Origin: Candidatus Parcubacteria bacterium
GTDB lineage: Bacteria; Patescibacteriota; Patescibacteriia; UBA1558; GWA2-36-10
Reading direction: 5' to 3'
NCBI GenBank assembly: GCA_018664825.1
Contig: JABJNO010000025.1
Span: forward strand, 3,022-67,021
DNA: 64,000 nt
The notes under the pieces are model-generated. The model was not told the DNA's origin, ran no database searches, and saw only the letters and a list, made by a program, of their open reading frames with translations. The position numbers were made by a program, and so were the translations under genes. Shown piece by piece: positions 5,107 to 46,390 of this stretch; the stretch's first letter is position 1, and each line of letters starts with the position of its first letter.

Positions 5107-8100
5107 ATGGAAAATCAAAATTATCAACCGGTAAATTTACCAGAGTCCCAACCGGCTCAAGTGCCACCGAGTCATACTCCGCCACCGCAGGCACCGCAGG
5201 CACAAAAGCCTCACAGAGGAATGTCAAAGAAATCAACTGGTATGATAGCTGTATTAGCTTTTATACTTTTGGTAGTTGGGGGAGGTGCTTATGCTTTTTT
5301 CTTTACAGACTTGAAGTACAAAATACCTTGGCTCAGACCAGATGAGTCTCAACTAGTCAATTTGATGTATAATAGATTGTCCACTCTAGATGGGGCGGAT
5401 TTTTCTGTTGAGTACAATCTCTATGTAGCAGACAGAGATCAGGATATTATAGGTGATAGTGGCAACAGTAAGAGTGAAAGGGAGATGAGAAATTTGGCCT
5501 ATGACGTCCGATCATACTTGGCCAATCCAAAATCAGTCTTGACTAGATGTATAAATGATGGCGGAGAGCTTTTGCATGATGGTAAAAATACCTGTGATGG
5601 TGATGATAAACCCAAAAAAGACACTACAATGTGCAAGGGTGCTGATGGTAAAGTATATACTGCTATATGGGCAAGTCTAGAGGAAAAAGAATGGGAATAT
5701 CAAGATGATTGTGATTTTTCAAAAAATGAATTAGGCAATGTCACTTGGTCATATTCTGCAAAATCAACTTATAACGAAGATGCAGTTGAGTGTACGGAAG
5801 TTGGGTGTATTTTGGCAAGAGAAAACGATACATTAGATTTAAACACATCAGATGCCTTGATGTTTGCAGCTGGCAATTATTTCCAAGAAATTTTGGAAGA
5901 ATTAGAAGATCAAATTCCAAAAAACTTTGATGCCAAATTAGAATTTTCTGGTAAAGGATTTTCTATTTCCAATAGAGAAAAAGGAGAAAAATATCTACCC
6001 GATATAGAAGTTGGCCTAAAAGGTGAGGGGGATTTTTCTTCTCTGAGCGTAAAGTTGGATTTAGCAGCCAAGGTGGTAGATGATAAATTTTATTATAAAG
6101 TAGATAGTTTCCCAATGTTGGATATCACCGAAGGACATATGGGAGAATGGATAGAGATGGATACCGAACAAAATAGATCGTTTGCTGATATAGTGCCTGA
6201 GTATCAAGAAGAGCAAAAAGAAATTATTGATGATTTTCGTAATTTTATAGCTCAAACAAAAGATTATGATATTTTAGAGTTTGTTCCAAACGGTAAAACC
6301 ATCAAAATAGAAGGGGTGACCAGTAAATTATTTGATGTGACAGTAAAGGCGGAAAATATTCCTACTTGGTTAGAAGATGTTGTTAAAAAGGTTAGAGATA
6401 ATCAAGAGAAAATTGTAGATTCAGGCTTGATGGATATAAAGATAGAAAGCTCTGATGAAATGACCGAAGAAGATAAGGTCAAAATTGTAAATTATATTAA
6501 TAAGACATTAAAAAATTTAAATATTACAGCTGGTATTAGCACCAACACAGGGGACTTGATGTATTTGGAATTATTCTCCAGAATTTTACCAACAGCAGAT
6601 TCCAAAAAATTTGCCGATAAACAATTTAATTCTGTTTTAAAAATAAAAGCCTGGAATCAAAATAGTCCTTCAAAGATAGAGGCGCCCGGCGAATTTATCA
6701 GCTATGATGAGATTGATCAAGAAAAAAAGGGCTTGGATGATTTGGAGTATGCTGATTATAAACAATCAATGAGAATTACCAGTGTCCGACAAGATCTGGA
6801 TAAATACTATAAAGAGCACAAAAAATATCCAGATGAATTGAAAAAAGCTACCAAGCAGTATAGAGACTTGATTACAGATAAGGAGTATAAATATAGTGTA
6901 GATGGCAATAATTATGCCCTGATCTATACCATGAACAACACTACTATTCCTCCAGGGCAATTGAATAATAAACCAAGTAGTGCTGGCAGTGCTGGTGAAT
7001 GGGGATACAACGACTTGGATTCTGTTAATTTGGGTTATCCGGGTGGTTATGACAGAAGTGCTAGTTATAAAAGATTTTATTCCTATAATTATGTTTTAGA
7101 AAATTATTTATATTGGCATAGTGGTGAAAATCAAGCTGATCGTTATTCTCCTGTTGCTGATCAACATAAAACATCTGATAAGCTTGTCGTTGAGGGGGAT
7201 TATACAGATCACGATGTTTATGTAGCTGTTACTCAGTCCAAAAATATTAGAGCTATTTTGAGCACACTCAAAAACAAAAAGAGCTCAGATGGTAAATATC
7301 CAGATAATATAGATCCAGAAGAAGATCGTGAAATAGGTAAATATTATTATAATAACTTTAGTTATTGTGAAGATTTGATGACCAGTAATAAATGTGATTA
7401 TAAATCAATTAATAATGGCGAAGATTTTGAGCTCAAAGTAAATTTTGGAATGGATAGTTCAGGTATTGCCAAGAGCCTCTCTGGCTATAACTATGTTACT
7501 GTTTTTGATAAAGGTATAAATACTTTCAATGAATTTTCTACTGTTGATGCCAACAAGGACACAGATAGAGATGGCTTACTTGATATAGACGAGCTCAAAT
7601 ATGGCACAGACATAAACAACAAAGACACAGATGGTGATGGCTATTATGACGGTGAAGAAGTCCGTGGTGGTTACAATCCATTGGGATCTGGACTTTTGGG
7701 ACAAGAGGGTGAGCAAGTTGATCAAGGGGAGACAATCACTGGGTATTCTGTTCCTGATTTTAGCAAAGATTGGTATAGAGGAGATAAAGATGCTGGGCTT
7801 ACAGTTATTACTTTTTCTGATGTTGATTGTCCTTTTTGTGCTAGGTTTCATACTACTATGAATGAGGCGCTAGATTATTATGAGGGCCAGGTAAATTGGA
7901 TTCATCGACATTTTCCTTTGACAACCTTACATCCTGACGCCAAAAAAAAGGCTCATGCAGCTGAATGTGTAGGTGAGCTTGGAGATAGTGAAGATTTTTG
8001 GGCGTTCTTGGATTATGTTTTTGAAAATAGTGAAAGTTTGGCAGATCTTGATACTTATGTAACTACTATTGGTATAGATTCTGCCAAGTTTAAAGCTTGC

Positions 8101-8277
8101 CAAGATAGTGGAAAGTATAATTCAAAAATAGAAACACAGGCAACAGAGGCTCAGGCAGCCGGAGGTAGAGGGACTCCATTTAGTGTAGTAATAAAAAATA
8201 ACAAGGTAGTGGCTGAAATTCCAGGAGCCTTGCCTCTGGAGAGTATAAAGGCAACCTTGAATCAATTTGTAGAATAA
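5107..8277 (+). CDS. large membrane-anchored secreted protein with TSP3-like Ca-binding module and C-terminal DsbA-like thioredoxin domain
   Basis: N-terminal Pro-rich tail plus TM. DTDRDGLLDIDELKYGTDINNKDTDGDGYYDGEEVRGGYNPLGSG (nt ~7558-7680). C-terminal ~165 aa match the DsbA/Thioredoxin_4 pattern: VITFSDVDCPFCARFH (CxxC active site), HRHFPL, AAECVGE, GTPFSVVI. Confidence 0.6.
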   Translation: MENQNYQPVNLPESQPAQVPPSHTPPPQAPQAQKPHRGMSKKSTGMIAVLAFILLVVGGGAYAFFFTDLKYKIPWLRPDESQLVNLMYNRLSTLDGADFSVEYNLYVADRDQDIIGDSGNSKSEREMRNLAYDVRSYLANPKSVLTRCINDGGELLHDGKNTCDGDDKPKKDTTMCKGADGKVYTAIWASLEEKEWEYQDDCDFSKNELGNVTWSYSAKSTYNEDAVECTEVGCILARENDTLDLNTSDALMFAAGNYFQEILEELEDQIPKNFDAKLEFSGKGFSISNREKGEKYLPDIEVGLKGEGDFSSLSVKLDLAAKVVDDKFYYKVDSFPMLDITEGHMGEWIEMDTEQNRSFADIVPEYQEEQKEIIDDFRNFIAQTKDYDILEFVPNGKTIKIEGVTSKLFDVTVKAENIPTWLEDVVKKVRDNQEKIVDSGLMDIKIESSDEMTEEDKVKIVNYINKTLKNLNITAGISTNTGDLMYLELFSRILPTADSKKFADKQFNSVLKIKAWNQNSPSKIEAPGEFISYDEIDQEKKGLDDLEYADYKQSMRITSVRQDLDKYYKEHKKYPDELKKATKQYRDLITDKEYKYSVDGNNYALIYTMNNTTIPPGQLNNKPSSAGSAGEWGYNDLDSVNLGYPGGYDRSASYKRFYSYNYVLENYLYWHSGENQADRYSPVADQHKTSDKLVVEGDYTDHDVYVAVTQSKNIRAILSTLKNKKSSDGKYPDNIDPEEDREIGKYYYNNFSYCEDLMTSNKCDYKSINNGEDFELKVNFGMDSSGIAKSLSGYNYVTVFDKGINTFNEFSTVDANKDTDRDGLLDIDELKYGTDINNKDTDGDGYYDGEEVRGGYNPLGSGLLGQEGEQVDQGETITGYSVPDFSKDWYRGDKDAGLTVITFSDVDCPFCARFHTTMNEALDYYEGQVNWIHRHFPLTTLHPDAKKKAHAAECVGELGDSEDFWAFLDYVFENSESLADLDTYVTTIGIDSAKFKACQDSGKYNSKIETQATEAQAAGGRGTPFSVVIKNNKVVAEIPGALPLESIKATLNQFVE

Positions 8278-9646: not shown

Positions 9647-9820
9647 TAATTTCTTGATAATTAAACTTATATACTTATCTTAATTTTTATCTATTTTTGT
9701 AATATAAATAATAACATATCATCATCAAAAATAACAGTCAAGGGACAAAATGAGCCCGATTTTTGTATTTGATTTTTTAGCTAACAAATGATAAAATTCT
9801 ACTATAATTTCATTATTTTT

Positions 9821-12682
9821 ATGGTAAAAAAGACAGATTATAATCCTAACCGCATTGATGCCAAATGGCAAAAATTTTGGGATAAAAATAAAACATATAC
9901 AACTCCTGATAAAAAGGGAGATAATTTTTATGCTTTGGTAGAATTTCCTTATCCTTCTGGTGATGGATTGCATACAGGGCATTTACGTTCTTATACTGCC
10001 CTGGATGTGATATCTAGGAAAAAAAGGATGGAAGGTAAAAATGTTTTGTATCCGATGGGATTTGATGCTTTTGGATTGCCAGCTGAAAATTTTGCTATCA
10101 AGACAAATACAGCTCCCGAAATAACTACAAAAAAAAATATAGCCAATTATATATCTCAGATGAAGAGCGTTGGTTTGAGTTTTGATTGGGACAGAGGCTT
10201 TTCTACCACTGACCCAGATTATTATCGGTGGACTCAATGGATTTTTATCCAAATGTTCAAAAAAGGCCTAGCTTACAAATCAGTAGAAAATATCAATTGG
10301 TGTAATTCATGTAAAATTGGCTTGGCCAATGAAGAAGTTGTTGCTGGAGTTTGTGAGCGTTGCGGGGGAGAGGTGGTCAAAAAAGAAAAAGAACAGTGGA
10401 TGCTCAAGATTACAGAATATGCAGATAGACTGATAGACGGACTTGATAATATAGATTTTCTAGAATCTATCAAAAAACAACAAAAAGATTGGATAGGCAA
10501 GAGCGAGGGAGCGGAGGTTGATTTTAAAATAAAAGATACAAAAGAGACATTAAAAGTATTTACCACGCGTCCTGATACCTTGTTTGGGGCTACTTTTATG
10601 GTACTTGCTCCTGAACATCCGAACGTTCATGCTTTGGAAGGTAAAATTAGCAATTTAGTAGAAGTAAAAAAATATATATCTCATGCCAAGAAAAAGACCG
10701 ATGAAGAACGAGGCGCTGAGGACAAGCCAAAAACTGGCGTTGAGCTAGAAGGTATCAAAGCTATCAATCCAGTCAACAATGAGGAAATTCCTATTTTTGT
10801 AGCTGATTATATTATGATGGGTTATGGCACAGGAGCTATCATGGCTGTACCTGGACATGATCAACGTGATTATGACTTTGCCAAAAAATATAATTTGGAA
10901 ATTCGAGAAGTAATAGAGCCTTTATTTAGCAAGAACGAAGGCAAGGATGCTTTTCGAGAAGATGAAAAGATTATTGAGAGAGATGCAGCTGTCTGTGTAG
11001 TCAAGCACTGGAAAGAAGATAGGTATATTTGTTTGCAGTGGAAAAATGTAGACTGGCATGGACTGATTGTGGGTGGCATCAAAGACGGAGAAGATGCAGT
11101 GGAGGCTGCCAAAAGAGAAATAGAAGAAGAAACTGGTTATGCTAGCGCCAAATTTGTCAAAGAACTTGGTGGTAAAATACATGCTCAGTTTTATCAAACC
11201 TTGAAAAAAGAAAATCGCCGAGCTCATTTTCATGGATTATATTTTGAGCTTGAGGATGACAAAAATGTTGGTATTTCTGAAAAAGAGCAGGCTATCCATG
11301 ATGTAAAATGGATAGATAAGGATCAAGTAGAGAGTTTTCTCAATGTACCAGACATGAAGCTAATGTGGAGAAGACTACATGAGTGCGAAGCTTATAGTGG
11401 AGACGGGATTGCAGTAAATTCTGGAGAGTTTGATGGTCTAGAAACACTTGAGTTCAAACAAAAAATAACAAAATGGCTGGAGAAAAATAAAGTAGGCAAG
11501 TCAGCTACAAATTATAAATTGCATGATTGGATATTTTCTCGTCAGAGATATTGGGGTGAGCCAATTCCAATGATAAAATGTACAGAATGTGGGTGGTTAC
11601 CAGTGCCAGATGATGAGCTACCGGTTACTTTGCCAAAAGTGGATGACTTCAAGCCTGGTGATGACGGAGAGTCTCCGCTGGCCAAGATGATTAGTTGGGT
11701 AAATACCACTTGTCCCAAGTGCGGTAAGTTTGCCAAGCGCGAAACTGACGTCATGCCAAACTGGGCTGGCTCAAATTGGTATTTTATTCGTTTTTGTGAT
11801 CCAAAAAACAGCCAAGAACTTGTAGATAAGGAAAAAGCCGAAATGTGGTTACCGGTTGATTGGTACAACGGCGGCATGGAGCATACTACTTTGCATCTTT
11901 TGTATTCTCGTTTTGTTTTCAAATTTTTATTTGATATTGGTGCAGTTCCAAAGAGTATTGGTGATGAACCATACAAAAAAAGAACAGCCCAAGGTATGAT
12001 TTTGGGTGAAGGTGGTATCAAGATGTCCAAATCAAAAGGCAATGTCATCAACCCAGATGATTATGTAGCAAAGTATGGGGCTGATACTCTGAGGGTATAT
12101 GAGATGTTTATGGGTCCTTTTGATCAATCGATTGCTTGGGACGACAAAGGTGTCAAAGGAGTACATAAATTTTTGAATAAAGCTTGGAGTTTACAATATA
12201 AAGTTGGGAAGTCAGACGTTGATCAAGGTACTCTTCATAAGAGTATCAAAAAGGTTAGCGAAGATATTGATAATATGCGTTTTAATACTGCAATTTCTCA
12301 GCTTATGATTTTATCAAATGAGCTAGATAAACAATCAAGTATCCCGAAAGATATTTTTGAAAAATTCGTTTTGATATTATCTCCATTTGCGCCGCATTTG
12401 GCAGAGGAGCTTTGGAATAGCCTAGGTCACAAAGATAGCTTGGCTCATGAAAAATGGCCTAAATATGATGGAGGTTTGGCCAAAGATGATAGTATTGTGA
12501 TTGGTATCCAGATCAATGGCAAAGTCAGGGACGAGATTGAGCTGCCTACTGATACAGAGCCAAGTAAAGAAATAGAAAAACAGATTTTATCTCAAGACAA
12601 AGTCAAGAAGCATATTGGAGATAAAAAAATTGTAAAATTTATACACATTAAAAATAAAATAATTAGTATCGTAGTAAAATAA
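9821..12682 (+). CDS. leuS: leucyl-tRNA synthetase carrying an inserted NUDIX hydrolase domain
   Basis: HIGH motif (HTGHLRSY), editing-domain motifs (TTRPDTLFGAT, GTGAIMAVPGHDQRDYDFA) and KMSKS (KMSKSKGN). About 160 extra residues (nt ~10919-11395) between the editing domain and the catalytic-core re-entry contain a NUDIX box GGIKDGEDAVEAAKREIEEETGY. Start set at the second ATG (9821) because the first 11 codons overlap a TATAAT -10 element. Confidence 0.9.
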   Translation: MVKKTDYNPNRIDAKWQKFWDKNKTYTTPDKKGDNFYALVEFPYPSGDGLHTGHLRSYTALDVISRKKRMEGKNVLYPMGFDAFGLPAENFAIKTNTAPEITTKKNIANYISQMKSVGLSFDWDRGFSTTDPDYYRWTQWIFIQMFKKGLAYKSVENINWCNSCKIGLANEEVVAGVCERCGGEVVKKEKEQWMLKITEYADRLIDGLDNIDFLESIKKQQKDWIGKSEGAEVDFKIKDTKETLKVFTTRPDTLFGATFMVLAPEHPNVHALEGKISNLVEVKKYISHAKKKTDEERGAEDKPKTGVELEGIKAINPVNNEEIPIFVADYIMMGYGTGAIMAVPGHDQRDYDFAKKYNLEIREVIEPLFSKNEGKDAFREDEKIIERDAAVCVVKHWKEDRYICLQWKNVDWHGLIVGGIKDGEDAVEAAKREIEEETGYASAKFVKELGGKIHAQFYQTLKKENRRAHFHGLYFELEDDKNVGISEKEQAIHDVKWIDKDQVESFLNVPDMKLMWRRLHECEAYSGDGIAVNSGEFDGLETLEFKQKITKWLEKNKVGKSATNYKLHDWIFSRQRYWGEPIPMIKCTECGWLPVPDDELPVTLPKVDDFKPGDDGESPLAKMISWVNTTCPKCGKFAKRETDVMPNWAGSNWYFIRFCDPKNSQELVDKEKAEMWLPVDWYNGGMEHTTLHLLYSRFVFKFLFDIGAVPKSIGDEPYKKRTAQGMILGEGGIKMSKSKGNVINPDDYVAKYGADTLRVYEMFMGPFDQSIAWDDKGVKGVHKFLNKAWSLQYKVGKSDVDQGTLHKSIKKVSEDIDNMRFNTAISQLMILSNELDKQSSIPKDIFEKFVLILSPFAPHLAEELWNSLGHKDSLAHEKWPKYDGGLAKDDSIVIGIQINGKVRDEIELPTDTEPSKEIEKQILSQDKVKKHIGDKKIVKFIHIKNKIISIVVK

Positions 12683-13851: not shown

Positions 13852-14460
13852 ATGGAAGAAATCAGATTGACTAGAGAGAATCGAGTAATTACTTTGCAGA
13901 AAGCTCTGGATGTTTTGAGAGGAGGAGGATTGGTTGTTTATCCTACAGAAACTTCATATGGCTTGGGTTGTGATTTTTACAACAAAAAAGCTATAGAAAA
14001 AATTTACAAAGTAAAAGAGCGTGAGGCTGGTAAGCCTCTTTCTGTGATAGTGCCAGATTTTGTTTACGCTACTTCATTGGTTGATTTTTCAGATGCAGCT
14101 AGAAGATTGGCTATGGAAAATTGGCCAGGACCACTGACACTGGTATTGCCTTTCAAATATTCTGATTGGCAAGGACATAGTGATAAGTATTTGGCCTTGC
14201 GTGTATCGAATCATCCTTTGGCCGGAGACCTGTCTATAAATTTTGGCAATCCGATAGTAGCGACGAGCGCCAATATTTCTCAAAAAGGTGATAGTTATGA
14301 TCCTTATTTTATAGTAGATCAGTTCAAGCAACAAAAATTAAAACCAGACCTGCTCATCAATGTGGGTGAATTGCCAAAAAAACTTCCTTCTACTATCATA
14401 AAAGTAGATGGAGATGATGTAGAAATTTTGCGACAGGGTGGATTGGAAATAAAAATATAA
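13852..14460 (+). CDS. tsaC: L-threonylcarbamoyladenylate synthase (YrdC/TsaC family)
   Basis: LVVYPTETSYGLGCD...KIYKVKEREAGKPLSVIV...LALRVSNHP...IVATSAN are YrdC/Sua5 signature motifs. Size ~200 aa. Confidence 0.8.
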   Translation: MEEIRLTRENRVITLQKALDVLRGGGLVVYPTETSYGLGCDFYNKKAIEKIYKVKEREAGKPLSVIVPDFVYATSLVDFSDAARRLAMENWPGPLTLVLPFKYSDWQGHSDKYLALRVSNHPLAGDLSINFGNPIVATSANISQKGDSYDPYFIVDQFKQQKLKPDLLINVGELPKKLPSTIIKVDGDDVEILRQGGLEIKI

Positions 14461-17430: not shown

Positions 17431-20400
17431 ATGAAAAGCTACAAAAAAATTCTCTTATTAATTATAGCTATTTTACTAGCTGTTACCCTCATTTTCCCAA
17501 GATTGACCAGAAGTCAATTTGCTACCGTCGATCAACCTTCAACGTTGGGAAACATTTGGAACAAAGTAGAAACGGCTTATGACAAAATTCAGGGTATAGT
17601 TGGGGCTGAACTAGCAAACCGTACTTTTGAAATGTTTTTCAATAGTCTAGCTTATGATGTGGCCACCGAGCTAGCCGAAGGTGGAGCGGGCGGCAAACCT
17701 CAGTTTCGGACAAAGACCATAGGTGAGTATATGGGTAACGCTGGCGGAGCAGCTGTCGGTGAGTTTATTGGTACTCTAAGTGAACAAGCTTTTGAAGATT
17801 TGCGTGTAAATCTCTGTAGTCCAAATGCACTTTCAGTAAAACTTACCTTGTCACTTTCATTGATAGACGAAGAAGCTCCTCCGAAACCGGCTTGTGATTG
17901 GCGTAGGATTCAAAGAGATTGGGGTGATTTTGCTGATAACTTATCTGCTGATTTGATAAAATTCCAGCTTGACCCAAAGAGGGGGGCTACTAGTACTAGG
18001 GCATTTTTCCAGAGTTTTACTATGGAGCAAAGTGATTATGGTGCTTATGCTATATTATTTCAAAAAAAAGAAGAGAAAAAAGAAGAAGCTATAGACGCCA
18101 GTAAGCTTAGTGCCGAAGAGTGTCAGGGGTATCTTGATAAAGCAACTCCAATTACAGATGAGGTAATTACACATTGTTCAGTCACCCAGAGCATGAGTAC
18201 TATGCAATGGTTTATGTCTTGGTCTGCTCAATCTCAAAAACAATGGGAGAAAAAAAATGCAGCTACTAGCAAGAAGTTGGGTACCATCCTAAAAGATGCT
18301 GCTGGTAAATTTTATAGTACTTTTACTTCAAAATTGATGAACAACTGGATCAAAAAAGGAATGTGGTCCTTGTATGATTTATTTGATGGCAATGGTGGTG
18401 GAAAATACAGAAAGGGTTTGATAGAAGCTTTGCGTGGTGATTCTAATATTCGTCAGCCTCGTAATGCTGATATTTTCAAGGAGTTCAAAAAAATAGAGAT
18501 AGTAAAATTGGACGATTATAGTTTTATGGATGATTTCTCTATTTGTCCACCAGAAAAAGATCTAAGAAAACCAGACAACTGCGTGATTGGTACAGATTTT
18601 GTCCAAGCTATTAATTCCAAAAAAACACTGAACGAAGCAATTGCAGAGGGTCTAATAGATCCAAAAACACCCTTGATTAGTCCAGAGGATTTGAATAAAA
18701 ACACTAGCGATAATTGTTATAAAGATAGTTTGTGCTATAAAGATTTGATTAAACTAAGGAAAACCAATGTCATACCAATTGGTTGGGAGATAGCAGCTCA
18801 AAGAAGTTCAGTAGCTTCTCCGGTAAGTTTGGCAGAGGCTATAGAGTGTTTTGAGGATGCTCCAAACTCAAATTGTATTCATGACACAACAGCGGTTTAT
18901 GATATAAATGGAGTTCCGCATAATCCTTTTTATCATTTAGTGGATGGTGATTGGGTGCTCAAAGCTCCAAAATCAAGTTGTGAGGCTTTGGTTTATGCAC
19001 CAGTCTTGGAATCATCACAAAGTACCAACCGTCAACAGTATTGTGCTGATATGACGGTCTGTCTACGTGAAGATGAAAATGGAAATTGTCTTGATGGACA
19101 ATATGGATATTGTACTAAATCAGAGAATATTTGGCGTTTCCGTGGGGATATGTGTGATGATGGTGATATATACAATGGTTGCCTAACTTTTGAAAGTAAT
19201 TATGTAGATGATCCGGGCTCATTTATAGAGAGTAGTTTGGAATATTGTAGTGCTGATCAAGCTGGGTGTAAGCGTTATTCCCAGGAAGTAACAAATAGCG
19301 GAGAATGGTCACTGGGAGTCATATATGTAGATCCAAATGATTTATATTTAAATAGAAGAGAGGAGTCTTGCAACGAAGAGTTTGCAGGTTGTTCTGAATA
19401 TATAGTTTTGGCTCCAAATAGAGGGGTCAATCTTGTGGCAAATGCTGGTTTTAATAATATGGATGGTGATTCGGATGTACCCTTTCCAGATGGTAGGCCA
19501 GATGGTTGGATTGATTTGGCTACTGGCGAAGATAGTGATGGTGTAGAGTATGATGGTGATAGAATAGCCAATGGATATCCGTGGGGAGGCTCGCCTCATG
19601 CGGGTACAGAAAGTCTTTATCAAACAATACCTCTTGTAGAAAATACTACTTATAGGATTTCAGCTTCTGCTGGTAGATATAATAACGCGGTAGCTTCATC
19701 AGGAAGGATATCGATATTATTGTGTGATGTTACGGGTAACTGTGCCAATAATAGTTTGGCAAAGCCTTTGGCAGATGGCGGAGATTGTACTATACCAAAT
19801 CCAGGAGACAACAACCCTAATCTAACTATTTTCCCACCTGCTAGCGGGGAAATGGAGAGGGCAAGTTGTTCTTTTACTACCAATAGTGCAGAAATCGGAG
19901 AAGCACAGTTGTATGTTGTGTCAAACGGTTCAAATGCTAGTTGGTTTGATAATATTAAAGTAGAAGTTGTTGGTGGTCCTGAGATGGCAGCTAGCTCTTA
20001 TACAGAATACGGTGTTGGTGGGGTAGTATATATGAGCGGTAGCACTTTTATGTGTGAACGAGAAGAAGTGGGTTGTCAAGGCTATACTCCTGTTAACGGA
20101 GGCCCTATGGTACCTGGTACTATTTCTGAAGGAGATTTATGTCCTAATGAATGCGTGGGTTATTCTACTTTTGCTCAGCAACCAAATATATATGATATTA
20201 TGGAAGATCCAGCTTCAAATCCACCAGTAGAGTATTATAATTTTATTCCAGATACTGCCAATAGTTGTCCAGATTCAGAAATTGGCTGTGAAGAATTTAC
20301 AAATCTTGATGAAGTAGCTCAGGGCGGTGAAGGAAGAGAGTATTATAGTTTCTTGCGTCAATGTGTAGAGCAGGACTTGGCTGCTACATTTTTTACCTGG

Positions 20401-23400
20401 GAAGGCAACGATACAACTGGTTACCAGATTATTACTAGAGATTTATTGGGTAGTGAAGTAGTTACTTTTCTTCCAGATGGAGTAGCTCCATGTACAAATA
20501 TTGCCCCAGGAGGCAATGTTTGCCAGGACACTATCGGTGTTCCTGCGATTTGTGGTGACGAAACTCCAGCTGATCCAACCGATGATCCAGATGTTGATCC
20601 AAATTGTCGTGAATATTTTGATACTACTGGACGTTCATATTTCCGTTTTCAAGACAGAGTTATTTATGCAGACAATGATTGTCATGACTATAAGAGGACT
20701 TCTACTGGGCAAATATACAAAGCTATCCCTAGTAGGAGCATTGCTTGTTCAGCCGAAAACGATGGCTGTCGCTCATACTATGGTAACGCAGCTAATAATT
20801 TGAGAGAAATTTTCTCAGATAATTTTGAGGTGGATATGTACTATTGGGAGGATGCCGCAGGACCAGCGCTTGCGTTGTCTCAGGAGTCACTGAATGACGG
20901 AGGGCAATCTTTGAGAACTCAAACAGGTGGAGTGATATTCAAAGATTTACTTGCTGCTGGTGCTCAGGTATACAATGAAAAAGAATATGAACTTTCTTTC
21001 TGGATGAGGGCAAACGCACCTTTGTCTGATATGCAGGCTAGCCTTCTTGCGAATGATGGAGCCAATCCTTTGGTTATTGTTCCTATGGTAGATCCAGCGG
21101 ATGCCAACTTTAGAAATATTGGAGGAGGCACTTGGAATTATTATACTACCTCTGTATATGTAGATACCCTTAATATTGATTTAAACAATCTTGTAGATTT
21201 ACAGTTGAGACTTTCCTTTAATGGGGGGATAGTGGATGATATTTTCTTGGACAATGTTACGATGAGAGAAGTGTATACTCATCTAGCGGTTGTAAAAGAT
21301 TCTTGGGACACTCCAGTGTCTTGTGATACCCCATACGAAGGTTATCATCTAGGTTGTCAATCTTATATAGATACAAATGGAGCACCTTATAACTTAAAAT
21401 CGTTTTCACACCTATGTAGAGAAGAGGCGATAGGTTGTGCTCCGGCGATTGATACTCAAAACTCAACTTATCCTTTTAGTGAGGAATTCAACACGGGTGA
21501 TTTATCACGTATTACCGTACCAGCAGACAGCTTGACTTTCTTGGTGCCAAATTCTGAAAATTATTGTCCGGAAAATTATAAGGGTTGTAGTGCCCTGGGC
21601 TTGCCTGATGATTCTCTCAATCCATCTTCTTTTGAGACTGTCTACAAAATGAATGACCCAGACGCATACGGAGCTACTTTGTGTGAATTTGAGGGTCTGG
21701 ACTGCGAAGAGTTTAATTCAGCCAAAGGTACGTATTATTTCAAGATTATTTCAGAGCAAGGCAGCTGTAGTTATTTACAAAATGTTTTGATAAATGACGG
21801 CTCAAATGATCAATTGATAAATGGTTGGTTCAATAATTTTTCTATTGCAAATGATACAAATATTGGTTGTTCTGATGATGGAGATGGCACAATAGAACAA
21901 TCAGATTATGACTTTATCTGGGACCATTGTACTGGTCATCCAGATGTCCACACAGAACAAGAATGTACGGTTGGTGGATGGTTTTGGGAAAATAGCCAAA
22001 CAGCCGCTTCTTGTCCACCAGACAGAGATATGTGTACAGCTTTTAGAGATCCACAAGATCCAGTTGGTTGTGATCCAAACATCCAAGATAGAAATATAGA
22101 AGGGTACTGTAGTGATTTTGCGCATACTGATGAAAGTGCTTGTCGTTCAAATGGTGAGACCTGGACTCCTGCTTGTGATGAATATTATTATTATAAAAAC
22201 GATAAAATAGACGAGACTTCTTGCAACGGTCAAGTCGATAGAAATAGTGGCTGTATATTATTGGCAGATGCCAATAATTGGAATGGCGAGCATTCAGAAG
22301 TAGCTTTGTATTATGATAGTAATCAAAGTTATGATCTAAATGTATCTAGAAATCAGCCATACAGTCCGACTACTTGTAATCCTGATATTGATCCAACGTG
22401 TACTTTGGATGCAAATCTTTTGGTCAGAGCCTCAAAGGACAGGCAATGCGCCGAATGGCTAACTTGTAAATCGTCTACCGCAGTGTTCAATAAACAAACA
22501 AATGATTATGATTTGATTTGTGATGGCCTTGATTCTTGTGTTGAATTTGACGATGACGACACTAGCCTTACTAGTTGTAAAAAATGGGCAGATTATAATG
22601 AGACCAATACAGAGGCTTTGACGGCAGAGGTATACCAAACTCGAACTACTGGTAGGTACAACCATCTGGATTGGAGTGATTTTGAATATACTGGATATGC
22701 TGTACCGGATATGCTACCACCTAGTGAATTGGTTACTTACAATTTTGGTGACGAGGATAATCCAGAACCACGTTTGACTTATAGTGTTTGGGATAGCGTG
22801 GCTATCAATACAAGATTTTATGATGCTTGTGTGATCGCCTCTGATCCTGCTCAGCCACTAAATGACGCTGTTTGTACAGCTGAAATATCTGGGGAGAATT
22901 TTTATGGAGATTGTGAAGATGGTATTTGCTGGGTAAACCCAATGGCTCAAAACACTGATATAGATCAATTTCAAGTAGAAACTAGAGGTTACGCCACACC
23001 AAGCGCTCCTTTTCCAGCAGCTATTTCTCCTGGATTGGACAAATTACAGGCTTACAGTAACGCCAATGAGTGTGACGCAGATGAAAATGGTTGTGAGGCA
23101 GCTTATGTCAAAGTGACCTATGGTGACGCTTTGGGTAGCGCTACTGTTTTCCATTATCCGAAAGGATATTCGCCTATTCCTGGTAGTATTTGTACAATGG
23201 GGCGCACTAATGCTGGAATTATATGTACTGAGAATAGTCAGTGTGATTCTGCCTCTGGTAGATTTGATGGTCAATGTGCTCAAAAGACAAAAGAAGAAAC
23301 ATTTTTCAATTGGCAGGGAGTTTGTATGGAAAAAGATAAATCAGAAACTCTAGTCAAGGATAACGAAGACAGTAATAGCTGTAATATATGGTATCCAACT

Positions 23401-26253
23401 GATAGTATAGATGGTATAAGTAGCTTATTCAACAACTTTCGTGAAGCTGGTTATCATGCTGAAGACGGTAATGATGCTTTATTCTGTGCTGTAGCTGAGC
23501 CGTTTGAATTTACTGAAGATACTTATTTTTGTGGTCATACACAAAGTACTGGAGGTCTTACTGTGTGTACGGTTTTGATAAAAGTACCAGCTGGAGCTAT
23601 GGTGAGTTTGTCAGGTATTCAAAATTATGGTGATGAGATAGTAAATGGTTACTTAAGAAACTATGCCGACCATGCCTTTGACGAGCCGATAGATTATAGT
23701 AGTGAATATTCAGGCGCAAGCTTTCCAAATGGCTTTGGTGTAGATTGGGTTGAGAAAAATGGTGTTGGTCCAGATGTATACTATAATCCAAATCAAACAA
23801 CTTCGTGTACGCACTATAATAATTATGATAGTTTGCCAGTGAGCTTTGGTGATGGATATGACTCATTTTTCCGAGATATGGATTTTACTGATGATGATAT
23901 ACCACCGATGAATGATATTCCAGTGATTCCATTTGGCAATGTAGCTGAAGTATTCAATACCGGAGTAACTAGTAATGCCTCTGGTCCAATAGATATATAT
24001 TATTATGATGAAGAAGTTTCTGATAATGGTAATTTTTCTTATACTGCCGGTATTTTGGTACCTGGTGCTGAGCGTTATCATTACGGAATAAGTACTATAT
24101 ATGATGGTAATGTAGTGGCCGATGTTGGCAAGAGCTGTGAAGACAAATGTAGAAATGATTGGGGTGTTTTCTATTGTCCTGACGGCTGGCACGAATCTCT
24201 ACTAAGGAGAAAATACACAGGTTCAAAATGTAAAACATGGGGACCTCGTGAACATTGGAGTTTCCGTTATTGTAATCCAGGCGACCATAACTATTATGTA
24301 AAGGCAGAATATCCACCAACTATGGCACCACCAGCTCAGTGTTCTGAATATGATTGTGGCGCAGCCAATAAAGGACTTAGTTGTTTACATACACCTGGTA
24401 GTACATATAATGACATGTTAACCGCAGTTATTGGCTCTTCCTATAGTTGGATGCTTCCGGTTGATATTGATCCGAATCCAATGGTCACTACTTATAGAGA
24501 TAGATTACCTATACCTAATATGGCATTGGCTGGATTACCTCAATATTGTTATAATAATCCAAACTGTCTATATATATATTGTGTAGAAAGAGCTAGTGTA
24601 TCAAATGATTATTGTAGTGAATTTGGTGAAATAAGAGAAAATACAAATGCAGATGGTGTGGTCACTAGTATTAGTATTATCGAATGTCTGGACAATCTTT
24701 ATGAAACAGACCCTGAAAATGGCGTTCAAGCATTCAAGGTAAAAGATGACACTGATAACGTAGATCCAAACCTTGGCTGGCCACTGGCTATTGACTTAGG
24801 TCTTTTGGATCAAGCCTATAATACAGATTTTGCTTGTTATAATGTATCAAATTCAACCAATCCAATATACGATGGTAGTATTAATAACGAGCTGACATGT
24901 AACAACACATTAAATAGATCTTGGCTAAACAGGGGCTCAGTACAGCCTGCCTTTATGGGTTGCCTGGAGTCTGATGTGGGCGTAGACTGCTCTACTAATT
25001 TTGCAATGGCCCCTGCCAATAGATGCTATTGGTGGAGAAGAGGAAATTGGATAGCTCCATACTATTGTAGTTCTGTCTATGCTACCACGAGAGATGGTGC
25101 AGATTGTACGGGTCTGGAATGTTTCCAACAATGTAGGATAGTGACTGAGCTTGATTCAGAGGGTGATAGGTCTTATGTGCGTACTGATATTTGGTGGAGA
25201 AACGAAGAAAGTACTACTCGTTTAGTGACAGACAACTGGACTTCCTATTATTATCACAACAATACTATTGGTTATGGAGTAGCCAATGGTAATGTAGATT
25301 GGGACAACATCAATGATAATGCAATTCCAGATGAGTTTGGTGATCCGGGTTCATTTGATACTTTTGGTGCTGCTAAGAATAGTATAGGAGATCAAAAATT
25401 ATTTGCTCGAGCACCACTTGATAGTACAAATAATTTTTCAGAGTACTTGACTGCTCACTTCTTTAGTTTTGTATCTGGTACTCCAGAGCCAGTTGTTGAT
25501 GCTTATGCTTTGGCCGAAGATCAGATGGAGTATCTATTTTTCAGAACCTTTAATTTTGAATGGAGATGGGACTTACTCACTAGTCAATATACATATATTG
25601 AGCCAGATACTGCGTACTCTGTAAATTTACGTACTGTAGAGATGCCAAACGGAAACAACAACAATCCATTTGCCGGGGCAGAGTTTGACCCGGTTGTGTA
25701 CAAGAGTTGTGAAAACAAGCTATGTCCAATCACAGATTTGGCAGGAGAGATCCAAAGCTATGAGCACGGTATCACGGTCAATAACTCAAATGTCGGTAGA
25801 ATAAATGGACACGAGTCATTGTTTGTGTCTACCAAGTTTTTCTATTATGCTCACCCGGATCATATGCCTATCGTAGATGTGGGAGTGGTTTGGGGTGATC
25901 AGGATGTCAATCTTGTTTCATCAAATCCTGGTAAATATAAAAATAGTTTGGAAACCTGTGATCCTAATTGGATGGCAAGTCCACCAACAGGCTTTGTCCT
26001 TGGATTTGGTGGTACCGTGGGTGCTTGTCAGGTAGGCTATAAAGTATTTTACAATGATTATGCATATGATGCAGATCCACATGATCCTACAGTAGGACAT
26101 CCTTGTAATGGCGCTACTTATGATATAGCTGCTGGGCCAACTCCAGCTATCAGTGATGCTTCTTGTTTCCGCCCAGGTATTAGAGTAGAGGATAGATGGG
26201 GTCGTGAAACTACAGCTTATTATGATGATTGGATAGTTATCCATAGAAATTAA
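17431..26253 (+). CDS. giant (2940 aa) cysteine-rich extracellular/surface protein
   Basis: Uninterrupted 8.8-kb ORF. N-terminal signal/TM (ILLLIIAILLAVTLIFP). Very high Cys, Asn, Asp and Gly content typical of giant surface proteins of CPR-type genomes. Confidence 0.8.
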   Translation: MKSYKKILLLIIAILLAVTLIFPRLTRSQFATVDQPSTLGNIWNKVETAYDKIQGIVGAELANRTFEMFFNSLAYDVATELAEGGAGGKPQFRTKTIGEYMGNAGGAAVGEFIGTLSEQAFEDLRVNLCSPNALSVKLTLSLSLIDEEAPPKPACDWRRIQRDWGDFADNLSADLIKFQLDPKRGATSTRAFFQSFTMEQSDYGAYAILFQKKEEKKEEAIDASKLSAEECQGYLDKATPITDEVITHCSVTQSMSTMQWFMSWSAQSQKQWEKKNAATSKKLGTILKDAAGKFYSTFTSKLMNNWIKKGMWSLYDLFDGNGGGKYRKGLIEALRGDSNIRQPRNADIFKEFKKIEIVKLDDYSFMDDFSICPPEKDLRKPDNCVIGTDFVQAINSKKTLNEAIAEGLIDPKTPLISPEDLNKNTSDNCYKDSLCYKDLIKLRKTNVIPIGWEIAAQRSSVASPVSLAEAIECFEDAPNSNCIHDTTAVYDINGVPHNPFYHLVDGDWVLKAPKSSCEALVYAPVLESSQSTNRQQYCADMTVCLREDENGNCLDGQYGYCTKSENIWRFRGDMCDDGDIYNGCLTFESNYVDDPGSFIESSLEYCSADQAGCKRYSQEVTNSGEWSLGVIYVDPNDLYLNRREESCNEEFAGCSEYIVLAPNRGVNLVANAGFNNMDGDSDVPFPDGRPDGWIDLATGEDSDGVEYDGDRIANGYPWGGSPHAGTESLYQTIPLVENTTYRISASAGRYNNAVASSGRISILLCDVTGNCANNSLAKPLADGGDCTIPNPGDNNPNLTIFPPASGEMERASCSFTTNSAEIGEAQLYVVSNGSNASWFDNIKVEVVGGPEMAASSYTEYGVGGVVYMSGSTFMCEREEVGCQGYTPVNGGPMVPGTISEGDLCPNECVGYSTFAQQPNIYDIMEDPASNPPVEYYNFIPDTANSCPDSEIGCEEFTNLDEVAQGGEGREYYSFLRQCVEQDLAATFFTWEGNDTTGYQIITRDLLGSEVVTFLPDGVAPCTNIAPGGNVCQDTIGVPAICGDETPADPTDDPDVDPNCREYFDTTGRSYFRFQDRVIYADNDCHDYKRTSTGQIYKAIPSRSIACSAENDGCRSYYGNAANNLREIFSDNFEVDMYYWEDAAGPALALSQESLNDGGQSLRTQTGGVIFKDLLAAGAQVYNEKEYELSFWMRANAPLSDMQASLLANDGANPLVIVPMVDPADANFRNIGGGTWNYYTTSVYVDTLNIDLNNLVDLQLRLSFNGGIVDDIFLDNVTMREVYTHLAVVKDSWDTPVSCDTPYEGYHLGCQSYIDTNGAPYNLKSFSHLCREEAIGCAPAIDTQNSTYPFSEEFNTGDLSRITVPADSLTFLVPNSENYCPENYKGCSALGLPDDSLNPSSFETVYKMNDPDAYGATLCEFEGLDCEEFNSAKGTYYFKIISEQGSCSYLQNVLINDGSNDQLINGWFNNFSIANDTNIGCSDDGDGTIEQSDYDFIWDHCTGHPDVHTEQECTVGGWFWENSQTAASCPPDRDMCTAFRDPQDPVGCDPNIQDRNIEGYCSDFAHTDESACRSNGETWTPACDEYYYYKNDKIDETSCNGQVDRNSGCILLADANNWNGEHSEVALYYDSNQSYDLNVSRNQPYSPTTCNPDIDPTCTLDANLLVRASKDRQCAEWLTCKSSTAVFNKQTNDYDLICDGLDSCVEFDDDDTSLTSCKKWADYNETNTEALTAEVYQTRTTGRYNHLDWSDFEYTGYAVPDMLPPSELVTYNFGDEDNPEPRLTYSVWDSVAINTRFYDACVIASDPAQPLNDAVCTAEISGENFYGDCEDGICWVNPMAQNTDIDQFQVETRGYATPSAPFPAAISPGLDKLQAYSNANECDADENGCEAAYVKVTYGDALGSATVFHYPKGYSPIPGSICTMGRTNAGIICTENSQCDSASGRFDGQCAQKTKEETFFNWQGVCMEKDKSETLVKDNEDSNSCNIWYPTDSIDGISSLFNNFREAGYHAEDGNDALFCAVAEPFEFTEDTYFCGHTQSTGGLTVCTVLIKVPAGAMVSLSGIQNYGDEIVNGYLRNYADHAFDEPIDYSSEYSGASFPNGFGVDWVEKNGVGPDVYYNPNQTTSCTHYNNYDSLPVSFGDGYDSFFRDMDFTDDDIPPMNDIPVIPFGNVAEVFNTGVTSNASGPIDIYYYDEEVSDNGNFSYTAGILVPGAERYHYGISTIYDGNVVADVGKSCEDKCRNDWGVFYCPDGWHESLLRRKYTGSKCKTWGPREHWSFRYCNPGDHNYYVKAEYPPTMAPPAQCSEYDCGAANKGLSCLHTPGSTYNDMLTAVIGSSYSWMLPVDIDPNPMVTTYRDRLPIPNMALAGLPQYCYNNPNCLYIYCVERASVSNDYCSEFGEIRENTNADGVVTSISIIECLDNLYETDPENGVQAFKVKDDTDNVDPNLGWPLAIDLGLLDQAYNTDFACYNVSNSTNPIYDGSINNELTCNNTLNRSWLNRGSVQPAFMGCLESDVGVDCSTNFAMAPANRCYWWRRGNWIAPYYCSSVYATTRDGADCTGLECFQQCRIVTELDSEGDRSYVRTDIWWRNEESTTRLVTDNWTSYYYHNNTIGYGVANGNVDWDNINDNAIPDEFGDPGSFDTFGAAKNSIGDQKLFARAPLDSTNNFSEYLTAHFFSFVSGTPEPVVDAYALAEDQMEYLFFRTFNFEWRWDLLTSQYTYIEPDTAYSVNLRTVEMPNGNNNNPFAGAEFDPVVYKSCENKLCPITDLAGEIQSYEHGITVNNSNVGRINGHESLFVSTKFFYYAHPDHMPIVDVGVVWGDQDVNLVSSNPGKYKNSLETCDPNWMASPPTGFVLGFGGTVGACQVGYKVFYNDYAYDADPHDPTVGHPCNGATYDIAAGPTPAISDASCFRPGIRVEDRWGRETTAYYDDWIVIHRN

Positions 26254-28891: not shown

Positions 28892-30151
28892 ATGGAGGAC
28901 GAACTACAAAAATTACCAGTCGAGGTAAAGGAGGTTATTTTTAGTCAGGATTTTGTAAAAGCAAATAATGATATTGTTGATAAGTTTTCTTTCAATAGGG
29001 CTCAACAGGAGCTTATTTTAAGTTTGGAAGAATCTTTATTTTTAAAAAAGATCTCTCCCTTGGACTTGTCTTCTGAATTGGAGGATTTGGAGAGGGCGGA
29101 TTATTATGATTTACGAAAAGTAGGCTTAGAAATTGCTCTCAATATTTTGTGGCCATTACAAGAGTATCTCAAAACAGTGGATAGGCTTATTTTACGCTTG
29201 GGTGGTAAAGTGCCCAGATTGATTCGTCTCAAACGGACACCAGTCCAAAAAAAAGTATTTCCTGATCTCCACAAGGGCTATGTCAGGGAAATGATAAAAG
29301 AGTTTGATGATTTCAAAGATTTGAGGCTGACAGCAAAAAAAATTATAGATAAAAGTGGTAGGTTGGTAATTTCTAGTATTGATAACTGGATAAAAGATTA
29401 TATTCATTTTTTGGGAGCTGGTTATCACAACTCTTTACAACGGTCTCAGTACTTGGCCAAATCACCAAATGTCAAAGCTCTCAATTTGGCAGAAAAAGAG
29501 CTTATGCGTCATTTTATAACTTCTTATGATGACAACGTTGAGATTACCCTAGAAAACAAAAGTGGAGTATTGGTTGTAATAGAGGAGGAAGAAACTTCAA
29601 AAGAACGGGGTGTAAAAAAACCTACGGAAATAAAAATAGACAAAGTTGTTGCTAATTTGCAAAAACAATTGACTGCCCTAGAAGCTGACATTATGCCCAC
29701 TGATTTTATACTTTCAGAAGCAGAAAATGATATCAAAAAATTGGGAGATGTTTTGTGGAAGGCGGTTGGATTGCAAGATAAAAATAAAGTTCTAAGCTGT
29801 CTCAAGGTGATGGTTGAAAAAAAGTTTTTGGATAGTATGCTAGTTGAAAATAATAGGTTTAAAAATATTTTGAAAAGATTTGTAAATATCACCTATGGGA
29901 TTGAGGCCGAGAGAGGACTGTCTCAAAACAGTGACAAGTTGATTGCTAGACGTTTATTTTTGCAAATGTTATTGGCTGATAAATTGCGCCTAAAAGAACG
30001 TGAGGCAACATTGCTATCTTTTTATCTGACAAATTTGTTGCCAGGTTCGGGGCAAGTTGTATATTTGGATCAAAATGACGGTGAGCTCAAGTGGAGGGAG
30101 ATACACTCATCCGCTGGGCATCTGGCCTGGGTTGATCAAGTGACAGGATAA
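28892..30151 (+). CDS. hypothetical cytoplasmic protein (last gene of giant-protein operon)
   Basis: Long ORF with no recognisable motifs. Confidence 0.4.
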   Translation: MEDELQKLPVEVKEVIFSQDFVKANNDIVDKFSFNRAQQELILSLEESLFLKKISPLDLSSELEDLERADYYDLRKVGLEIALNILWPLQEYLKTVDRLILRLGGKVPRLIRLKRTPVQKKVFPDLHKGYVREMIKEFDDFKDLRLTAKKIIDKSGRLVISSIDNWIKDYIHFLGAGYHNSLQRSQYLAKSPNVKALNLAEKELMRHFITSYDDNVEITLENKSGVLVVIEEEETSKERGVKKPTEIKIDKVVANLQKQLTALEADIMPTDFILSEAENDIKKLGDVLWKAVGLQDKNKVLSCLKVMVEKKFLDSMLVENNRFKNILKRFVNITYGIEAERGLSQNSDKLIARRLFLQMLLADKLRLKEREATLLSFYLTNLLPGSGQVVYLDQNDGELKWREIHSSAGHLAWVDQVTG

Positions 30152-46018: not shown

Positions 46019-46106
<88 letters not shown>

Positions 46107-46243
46107 TTCGATTCGCTTTTGCTTTGCAAAAGCTCACTCATGGTCTACGGTGCTAAAATAGCACCTCCAACCAGTTTATTTATAGAATCGAATGTCCTGA
46201 GCGAAGTCGAAGGACAGGAGACATTGAAATATTATTATTGCTA

Positions 46244-46319
46244 GTCCTCGTAGCTCAGTGGATAGAGCGTTTGGTTGCGGTCCAAAAGGTCGCAGGTTCG
46301 ATTCCTGCCGGGGACACCA
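46244..46319 (+). tRNA. tRNA-Arg (anticodon read as GCG), encoded CCA
   Basis: 76-nt cloverleaf: acceptor GTCCTCG/CGGGGAC, D-arm GCTCAGTGGATAGAGC, anticodon stem TTTGG/CCAAA with loop TTGCGGT, T-arm GCAGGTTCGATTCCTGC, ACCA. Anticodon assignment by hand. Confidence 0.65.
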
Positions 46320-46390
46320 AGCTTCGACAAGCTCAGCTTGGATAAGCTTGTCCTGAGCGAAGCCGAAGGGCATTATATTATCAACCAAAT

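Follow-up and report, generated by a model that had tools for sequence, protein, structure and literature searches.

Why should a leucyl-tRNA synthetase (LeuRS) carry a nucleotide hydrolase within its own editing domain? The question is raised by the leuS gene of a Candidatus Parcubacteria bacterium, which lies in a 64,000-nucleotide stretch of contig JABJNO010000025.1 (positions 3,022 to 67,021; assembly GCA_018664825.1) that is referred to here as the window. The gene (9788..12682, forward strand) is one continuous frame encoding a bacterial-type LeuRS of 964 amino acids (TIGR00396). An earlier note on this DNA, made from the letters alone, had proposed that the otherwise canonical product contains a discrete and complete Nudix hydrolase domain, and on this the profile hidden Markov model (HMM), the predicted fold and the motif alignment agree. 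The domain belongs to a Nudix subfamily that is found repeatedly within, or encoded directly upstream of, aminoacyl-tRNA synthetases, and its role may, tentatively, be to clear by-products derived from aminoacyl-adenylates.

A Nudix domain within the CP1 editing domain of LeuRS

Alignment with phmmer to the LeuRS of Thermus thermophilus (1h3n) gives two blocks, with residues 17-377 of the window protein matching Thermus residues 3-363 and residues 534-753 matching Thermus residues 375-592. From these blocks on either side, 156 residues of the window protein (aa 378-533; 10919..11386, forward strand) replace an 11-residue loop (Thermus residues 364-374) of the connective peptide 1 (CP1) domain, in keeping with the ~160 extra residues reported before. 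The coordinates given at that time, 10919-11395, correspond to aa 378-536 and are in frame, and the open reading frame 9788-12682 is uninterrupted. Close relatives that lack the Nudix domain have 0-15 residues at this position. The insert had been thought to follow the editing domain and precede the return to the catalytic core, but the 1h3n alignment and Pfam both put it within CP1. The Pfam NUDIX match falls between two stretches of the editing-domain model PF13603, the first of which stops at model position 157 of 185. The published boundaries of CP1 are Thermus residues 224-417, and the Pfam model positions, 157/158 of 185, place the site independently of these. As judged by alignment, the insertion point is a surface loop inside the CP1 editing domain and not a position after it.

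The match to Pfam NUDIX (PF00293) covers aa 399-520 of the window LeuS with E=1.2e-13 and a score of 51.6 bits, well above the curated gathering cut-off of 21.1 bits, and taken by itself the insert reaches 55.3 bits. The Nudix box, GGIKDGEDAVEAAKREIEEETGY (aa 429-451; 11072..11140, forward strand), reads as an exact fit to Gx5Ex7REUxEExGU, its catalytic residues by sequence being E435, R443, E444, E447 and E448. The core of the fold (aa 395-530; 10970..11377, forward strand), as delimited by DSSP on AlphaFold2 models, Pfam and Foldseek, consists of three strands, the Nudix helix, three further strands and helices. When modelled in isolation the insert is confidently predicted to take up a discrete Nudix fold, an alpha/beta/alpha sandwich that has the box on a loop-helix-loop, with a mean predicted local distance difference test score (pLDDT) of 91.3 and a predicted template modelling score of 0.84, and the helix at model residues 67-79 holds the RE..EE residues. 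In the model of the full-length protein the mean pLDDT is 88.4, with 10-residue block means of 86-96 over the insert. Foldseek matches the isolated insert to 2azw and 3i7u with a probability of 1.00 and target-normalised template modelling (TM) scores of 0.78-0.82; its neighbours are the E. faecalis MutT/nudix protein 2azw, the Aquifex Ap4A hydrolase 3i7u, NudB and M. smegmatis MutT1, and further E. coli RppH, Chlamydia CT771 and M. tuberculosis Rv2985. While TM scores to these solved structures reach 0.82, the sequence identity is merely 14-21%. Profile, motif and model together identify the insert as a complete Nudix domain, with the predicted metal-binding and catalytic residues intact.

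That the insert is an artefact, whether of chimeric assembly, of a frameshift or of accidental likeness to the motif in a linker peculiar to the lineage, has negligible probability and is refuted by the continuous frame, the HMM score above the cut-off, the confident fold and the lack of a compositional break, as well as by the occurrence of the same architecture in many independent assemblies (NCBI, JGI, ENA, Logan). The G+C content across the insert, 0.36-0.41, is the same as that of its flanks. An origin as a mobile element was also considered and rejected, there being no repeats resembling target-site duplications around the insert, no anomaly in G+C content and no relatives among 50,697 phage records. 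A six-frame scan of the 64-kb window with the family HMM gave no member of the subfamily other than the copy in LeuS.

Conservation of the box was counted over 224 aligned domain copies, including second and third copies within one protein. Gly at box position 1 is kept in 221 of the 224, Glu at positions 16, 19 and 20 in 221, 216 and 223 respectively, and Gly at position 22 in 222. The retention of the three glutamates (216-223 of 224) indicates that the catalytic residues are under constraint, which supports an active enzyme. Glu7 and Arg15 of the box covary (E...R to Q...A/M), as would be expected if the two form a structural pair, and ~20% of the copies change one or both. Outside the box R398, W418, K473, N476 and W508 are invariant across the subfamily and R477 and H504 nearly so. 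Nearly all copies have aromatic residues at box +17/+18 (F468-Y469 in the window protein), followed by K473, N476 and R477 in the hairpin. Among 52 Nudix-bearing LeuS the mean pairwise identity is 42% for the insert vs 54-67% for the regions of LeuS itself; on these figures the insert evolves faster than the LeuS core, yet is clearly constrained. The domain might instead be a non-catalytic module, with the Nudix fold serving as a nucleotide sensor (of Ap4A or ppGpp, for example) or regulating LeuRS as a structural or tRNA-binding addition. Non-enzymatic proteins with this fold do exist (PMC5389931), and the changes at Glu7 and Arg15 point the same way. However, those changes are paired, suggesting that structure is preserved, and the metal-ligand glutamates (RE..EE) are present in at least 96% of the 224 copies, including those in multi-copy proteins, which is the pattern of an active enzyme. 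A non-catalytic role thus seems highly improbable, and the domain looks to be a catalytically active enzyme.

Outside the insert, alignment and model identify a complete bacterial-type LeuRS with its synthetic and editing sites intact. The protein scores 990.2 bits against TIGR00396 leuS_bact (cut-off 548.4), in two stretches that lie on either side of the insert, and 215.8 bits against PF13603, for which Pfam reports the second stretch beyond the NUDIX match. The full-length model matches E. coli and T. thermophilus LeuRS in Foldseek with target-normalised TM scores of 0.76-0.83. Invariance of motifs was assessed in a LeuS family alignment (A1) of 69 sequences, in which HTGH, TTRPDT, H357/D358/R360/D361 and KMSKS are invariant with or without the insert. 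All of the following features are on the forward strand. The HIGH-type signature of the synthetic site, HTGH (aa 62-65; 9971..9982), has H62, G64 and H65 invariant. The N-terminal part of CP1 (aa 233-377; 10484..10918), where PF13603 aligns over aa 233-390 (model positions 1-157 of 185), contains the T-rich motif TTRPDT (aa 259-264; 10562-10579; T260, R261, D263 and T264 invariant) and the HDQRD motif (10856-10870; H357, D358, R360 and D361 invariant); TTRPDT and D358/D361, which supply the T-rich region and the conserved Asp by which the amino group of the substrate is anchored, are presumably equivalent to T247-T252 and D342/D345 of E. coli LeuRS. Beyond the insert the C-terminal part of CP1 (aa 534 to ~576; 11387..11515), which includes NSGEFDGL and aligns with the Thermus enzyme from residue 375, leads back into the catalytic core, YKLHDWIFSRQRYWGEPIP. 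The KMSKS loop (aa 745-749; 12020..12034) is invariant at K745, M746, S747, K748 and S749, and the anticodon-binding domain (aa 816-926; 12233..12565) is matched by PF08264 with E=1.3e-21. The leucine-specific domain is absent from the window protein (~aa 740-745), Thermus residues ~580-636 having no counterpart in the 1h3n alignment.

A deposited protein (P0001) that is 100% identical to the window LeuS has 953 residues, from which translation is likely to start at Met12 (nt 9821); the low confidence of the first 12 residues in the full-length model agrees with this. Annotation pipelines sometimes give such LeuRS a lesser name, P0001 being deposited as 'class I tRNA ligase family protein [Candidatus Parcubacteria bacterium]'. 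A word-indexed search with a 179-residue insert query returned no match despite the presence of P0001 in the database, which reflects a limit of the index and not uniqueness of the insert.

Insertion sites, ProRS fusions and stand-alone genes

The same insertion is found in many relatives of the window protein, a survey of which had been suggested in the earlier note. Among the 120 closest relatives of the window LeuS, 61 contain the Nudix insert, the named carriers being, by their labels as deposited (as for all taxa here), Komeilibacteria, Parcubacteria or 'Patescibacteria group'. An exhaustive search with the insert over 1.84 billion protein representatives gave only 399 relatives at E<=1e-3; the best 150 of these were inspected and are mostly LeuS proteins or LeuS fragments. 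By similarity the insert thus belongs to a small and distinct Nudix subfamily (399 representatives in 1.84 billion proteins). A limited scan of species-representative genomes gave 41 loci with the architecture of the window gene. The scan was seeded with peptides of the window protein, EIEEETGY among them, and is therefore biased to close box matches; since the seed lies in the box, box conservation in these loci was excluded as evidence. Seventeen of the 41 are from Patescibacteria lineages (Saccharibacteria, Kaiserbacteria, Nomurabacteria, Paceibacterota, Zambryskibacteria, Moraniibacteriota and others), 16 are gut or rumen metagenome-assembled genomes (MAGs) labelled Bacilli, Erysipelotrichaceae, Tenericutes and similar, three are labelled Archaea or Woesearchaeota and five have other labels. 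A coherent gut/rumen group, with LeuS of ~940 aa and the insert at the same CP1 site, comprises L032, L033, L035, L036, L038, L041-L047, L050, L051 and L053. Its box variant is GGTxxxGE..C..REIEEETGY; in L043 the LeuS has a degenerate KMSKS (KMGKR) and is without the ZN-1 cysteines.

Dissection of the matches with pieces of the window protein maps the insertions in LeuRS to three sites. Site A, inside CP1, is that of the window protein and is the commonest. Site B lies between the N-terminal Rossmann half and CP1, and is the sole site in P0129, while site C, the sole site in P0174, lies past CP1 in or beside the Zn-2 module. Up to three Nudix domains are found in one protein, P0121 having two at B and one at A and P0175 two in tandem at A. 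The nearest neighbours of domain copies are mostly from the same site (A-A 141, B-B 10, C-C 3), but cross-site nearest neighbours occur with up to 67% identity, so that copies have moved between the sites. In a tree of the LeuS core built by neighbour joining (776 columns, distance-based, midpoint-rooted, without support values) Nudix-less LeuRS nest at no fewer than eight places among the Nudix-bearing ones, with residual loops of 0-15 residues. The simplest reading of the tree would be an old gain followed by repeated loss of the domain, and this apparent loss implies that the Nudix domain is an accessory that is not needed for aminoacylation.

A second, unrelated domain, a serine hydrolase (PF06821; alpha/beta fold, RBBP9/YdeN-like), is inserted in 21 of the ~270 collected proteins. 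In LeuRS its place is site B, ahead of CP1 or where CP1 begins, or site C, after CP1 and near Zn-2, and it is present with or without Nudix. Carriers include P0009, P0061, P0080, P0082, P0101, P0115, P0120, P0166, P0179, P0183, P0204, P0206, P0234 and the locus L017; P0185 has two copies, and P0126 has two Nudix domains and one serine hydrolase. It could be an esterase positioned near the tRNA acceptor end, and as such is a candidate deacylase.

The subfamily is not confined to LeuRS. P0213 is an archaeal-type class II prolyl-tRNA synthetase (ProRS) in which a Nudix domain of the subfamily is located between the anticodon-binding and C-terminal domains, and four further clusters (P0271-P0274) have the same architecture. 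These nest among Nudix-less ProRS of ~485 aa, the named ones of which are Nanoarchaeota or Woesearchaeota (DPANN). Two ProRS-Nudix loci were located, with the gene at 3720-5744 in L085 and at 5593-7524 in L086; near the former are another Nudix, an AAA_18 kinase-like protein and MazG, and just upstream of the latter is a tRNA_bind protein. In the sequences examined every fusion partner is a synthetase, either LeuRS, at the three sites, or ProRS.

Other members are stand-alone proteins of 155-190 aa, which share an N-terminal extra strand with the start of the LeuS insert; P0158, P0223 and P0263 are fragments of LeuS or ProRS and were left out of this tally. The gene neighbours of ten stand-alone members were sampled. 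Three end a few nucleotides before leuS (P0137 by 2 bp, P0146 by 1 bp and P0145 by 10 bp), P0391 is 86 bp before thrS, which is followed by miaA, and the copy in L025 is ~290 bp before valS. P0143 is part of a metG-like ... leuS array, P0160 is 4 bp after fpg (MutM), and the neighbours of P0186, P0193 and the copy in L030 are uninformative. Thus five of the ten are directly upstream of leuS, thrS or valS, far above a chance expectation of ~3% per gene, roughly estimated from ~20 synthetase genes in ~800. Loci with stand-alone genes upstream of these three synthetase genes are L001-L003, L007, L010, L025 and a contig of JGI 3300071358. A Nudix gene that ends 4 bp before leuS in L006 was not counted, as it encodes a generic Nudix of another subfamily. 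In the window itself thrS (50041-51795; ThrRS of 584 aa) has no Nudix gene upstream. Both insertion and gene adjacency, as read from the sequences, tie the subfamily to aminoacyl-tRNA synthetases.

Candidate roles of the Nudix domain

The only PDB sequence match of the window insert is the lupin Ap4A (diadenosine tetraphosphate) hydrolase (1F3Y), and the best matches of the family profile are AvrM14 (E=5e-7), the lupin enzyme and Dcp2 (4e-5). The RppH models are matched by 33 of 33 family members and YtkD by 27, while the MutT models are matched by just 3-4. The best family score against the RppH models (NF001934-NF001938) is 33 bits, compared with cut-offs of 116-259, and none of the 33 passes; the 3-4 members that match the MutT models (TIGR00586, NF008044) do so with E of ~1e-5 to 1e-6, again below the cut-off. 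The insert is therefore not a member of either family, RppH being its nearest named neighbour. Profile similarity places the subfamily in the region of the superfamily occupied by RppH and the ApnA hydrolases and not with the ADP-ribose, CoA or NADH enzymes.

The role that we favour, although with some hesitation, is that an RppH/Ap4A-hydrolase-like Nudix domain tethered to the synthetase clears adenylate-derived by-products such as adenylylated nucleoside polyphosphates (ApnN). The domain would be an active Mg-dependent hydrolase of the RppH/Ap4A-hydrolase type, working beside the synthetase to destroy the side products of its adenylate. The likeliest substrates would be Ap4A, Ap3A, ApnN and p4A, which synthetases form by reaction of the bound aminoacyl-adenylate with ATP or a different NTP. 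Cleaved asymmetrically, these would give back AMP and ATP to organisms that salvage nucleotides instead of making them, and tethering, or translational coupling of an adjacent gene, would put the hydrolase where the by-product is made. Synthetases of both classes form Ap4A and ApnN from aminoacyl-AMP and NTP, and the Nudix enzymes RppH/NudH, MutT1 and NUDT2 cleave them asymmetrically (PMC7705103, PMC10148737). Among the functional ideas put forward earlier, which were action on Ap4A or adenylate by-products, action on alarmones and proofreading, by-product clearance appears to be the best match to the genomic associations, which favour it.

The same similarities can be read in another way, as those of an enzyme acting on RNA 5' ends. 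A pyrophosphohydrolase or decapping enzyme resembling RppH or Dcp2, held near the tRNA acceptor end, would convert 5'-triphosphate or Np4A/NAD-capped tRNA or RNA to the 5'-monophosphate. The best profile matches, AvrM14 and Dcp2, are RNA-5'-end Nudix enzymes, AvrM14 being an effector of flax rust that reportedly decaps mRNA; all 33 members match the RppH models and 27 match YtkD, and E. coli RppH is one of the closest by fold. The three LeuRS sites, around CP1 and the Zn module, would also be on the acceptor-end side, going by domain order. Since the RppH-type and ApnA-hydrolase-type enzymes form one clade, similarity does not discriminate between this role and by-product clearance. However, the scores are far under the RppH cut-offs, the stand-alone, gene-adjacent versions need no tethering to tRNA, and the ProRS insertion follows the anticodon-binding domain and precedes the C-terminal one. 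RNase P, moreover, is what normally makes the 5' ends of bacterial tRNAs. On balance an RNA 5'-end activity seems unlikely, though it deserves to be kept in mind.

It is rather unlikely that the domain is a generic house-cleaning Nudix, sanitising oxidised or non-canonical NTPs as MutT does or acting on some other metabolite, with no mechanistic tie to aminoacylation, and fused to or co-transcribed with essential genes of high expression merely to secure its own expression in streamlined genomes. The position of P0160 just after fpg is reminiscent of the GO system, MutT1 and NudB resemble the domain in fold, and the ProRS locus L085 also has another Nudix and MazG. Repeated loss from LeuRS would be that of a dispensable function, and the finding of the unrelated serine hydrolase in the same insertion sites is as expected for permissive loops. 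Yet the partners are not random essential genes, but synthetases in every fusion among the sequences examined and in five of ten neighbourhoods, and the MutT models are matched by so few of the members.

Hydrolysis of released or mis-activated aminoacyl-adenylates, that is pre-transfer editing in cis or in trans, would give the domain a proofreading role. LeuRS, ValRS, ThrRS and ProRS all mis-activate near-cognate amino acids and edit, and in the window protein the Nudix domain sits inside the editing domain itself. The choice of partners fits any by-product model, however, and the sample of them is small. The CP1 hydrolytic site is fully intact, so there is nothing for a second site to compensate. 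Aminoacyl-AMP is an acyl-phosphate rather than a nucleoside diphosphate linked to X; we know of no Nudix enzyme that hydrolyses it, and it is enzymes of the HIT family and HINT that handle aminoacyl-AMP. Proofreading of this kind is therefore very doubtful.

Clearance of ApnN by-products also has a number of points against it. The specificity of a Nudix enzyme is unreadable from sequence at 14-21% identity, and all matches to characterised families are far under their cut-offs (RppH at most ~33 bits vs 116-259). The hairpin that would determine specificity has a signature of its own, the aromatic pair followed by K473, N476 and R477. In ApnA hydrolases a conserved X-loop tyrosine downstream of the box stacks on the adenine (Dunn et al. 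1999, via PMC5389931); the hairpin shows no clear counterpart of this single tyrosine marker, Tyr87 in NUDT2. Some stand-alone members are found elsewhere, P0160 by fpg and P0186, P0193 and the L030 copy in uninformative surroundings. The repeated loss seen in the tree shows what would be a dispensable or replaceable function, and a high flux through LeuRS, as a reason for the preference for this synthetase, would be only a conjecture.

In a wider sense it is possible, although this we hold more loosely still, that these proteins represent an undescribed class of accessory enzymes coupled to synthetases. A Nudix subfamily dedicated to this, at times together with a serine hydrolase, would have been recruited repeatedly, by insertion or operon coupling, to the mis-activating LeuRS, ValRS, ThrRS and ProRS of ultra-small-genome bacteria of the Candidate Phyla Radiation (CPR), of MAGs labelled DPANN and of gut MAGs labelled as relatives of Bacilli. 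Its role might be adenylate proofreading at source, through clearance of ApnN or aminoacyl-AMP, or else processing of tRNA 5' ends. Were ApnN to be the substrate, a destroyer of Ap4A would be tethered to a producer of it, and this would amount to direct evidence of Ap4A being treated as a damage by-product, and not as a signal, in these organisms.

Related systems and other genes of the window

The window enzyme shares with canonical LeuRS (E. coli 4AQ7/4ARC; T. thermophilus 1H3N/2BYT) the order HIGH, ZN-1, CP1, Zn-2, KMSKS, anticodon-binding and C-terminal domains; it differs in having a 156-residue Nudix domain in place of the 11-residue CP1 loop and in being without the leucine-specific domain. 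The nearest characterised relatives of the insert by profile and fold, RppH/NudH (YgdP) and the Nudix Ap4A hydrolases (1F3Y, 3I7U, CT771 4MPO, Rv2985 9CXX), have the same fold and a complete box, and their ApnA substrates are made by synthetases. At 14-21% identity to them, however, the insert subfamily has its own residues (R398, W418, K473, N476, R477, H504 and W508) and an N-terminal extra strand, and is embedded in or adjoins synthetase genes. A precedent for a class Ia synthetase with an extra enzymatic domain is the IleRS with an embedded N-acetyltransferase (NCBIfam NF040702, ileS_w_GNAT). This is a different synthetase with GNAT as opposed to Nudix, and the 66 bits that the window LeuS scores on this model (cut-off 1999) come only from the class I core common to both.

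Editing modules that deacylate mischarged tRNA, namely INS/YbaK/ProX of ProRS, AlaX/AlaRS and ThrRS-ed, are likewise known both free-standing and fused: depending on the lineage they are inserted as a domain or have a gene of their own, often an adjacent one. Their folds are unrelated to that of the Nudix domain, and the window LeuRS keeps its canonical editing site as well. Removal of by-products, the role proposed for the LeuRS Nudix, is carried out by ApaH, YqeK and NUDT2 for Ap4A and by HIT/HINT for aminoacyl-AMP. These are separate diffusing proteins, whereas the Nudix of this subfamily is nested in the producer or its gene is coupled in translation to that of the producer.

The architecture had been put forward as undescribed. 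This holds in so far as no paper was found: a literature search, largely without subscription journals, gave no account of a synthetase that bears or is linked to a Nudix domain, although such absence is not proof, and a survey of the Nudix clan (PMC5389931) makes no mention of tRNA or synthetases. It does not hold for the sequences, which are widespread and have been public for years with automatic, precomputed PF00293 labels, as in the LeuRS of Komeilibacteria RIFOXYC1_FULL_37_11. Few enzymes have been studied better than the synthetases, and extra catalytic domains are rare in the bacterial ones; here a predicted second hydrolytic active site is nested in the editing domain and kept across many lineages. 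The independent capture by a class II ProRS and the operon linkage to three synthetase genes argue strongly, through guilt by association, that the partnership is a functional one. The system offers a handle on the debate as to whether Ap4A and ApnN are by-products to remove or signals (literature reviewed in PMC7705103 and PMC10148737), and on how symbionts with reduced genomes and no de novo nucleotide synthesis limit nucleotide waste and toxic adenylates. The three permissive insertion sites of LeuRS may be useful in engineering.

Elsewhere in the window, a gene at 5107-8277 encodes a 1056-aa protein with an N-terminal transmembrane segment, bacterial TSP3 repeats and a C-terminal DsbA/thioredoxin-like domain (aa 888-1051). 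A Sua5/YrdC gene (TsaC, t6A synthesis) is found at 13852-14460, two genes downstream of leuS, and in L030 the stand-alone Nudix gene likewise follows a TsaC-like one. Four large open reading frames on one strand (17431-26253, 26284-28854, 28892-30151 and 33481-35019; 2940, 856, 419 and 512 aa) have no Pfam match at E<=1e-5, and the run is followed at 36178-38109 by a TraG/VirB4-like P-loop ATPase (PF19044). Together these may form an apparatus of the secretion, pilus or conjugation type, as is typical of CPR genomes. Genes for tRNA-Ser, tRNA-Arg and tRNA-Ser are located at 46019-46482.

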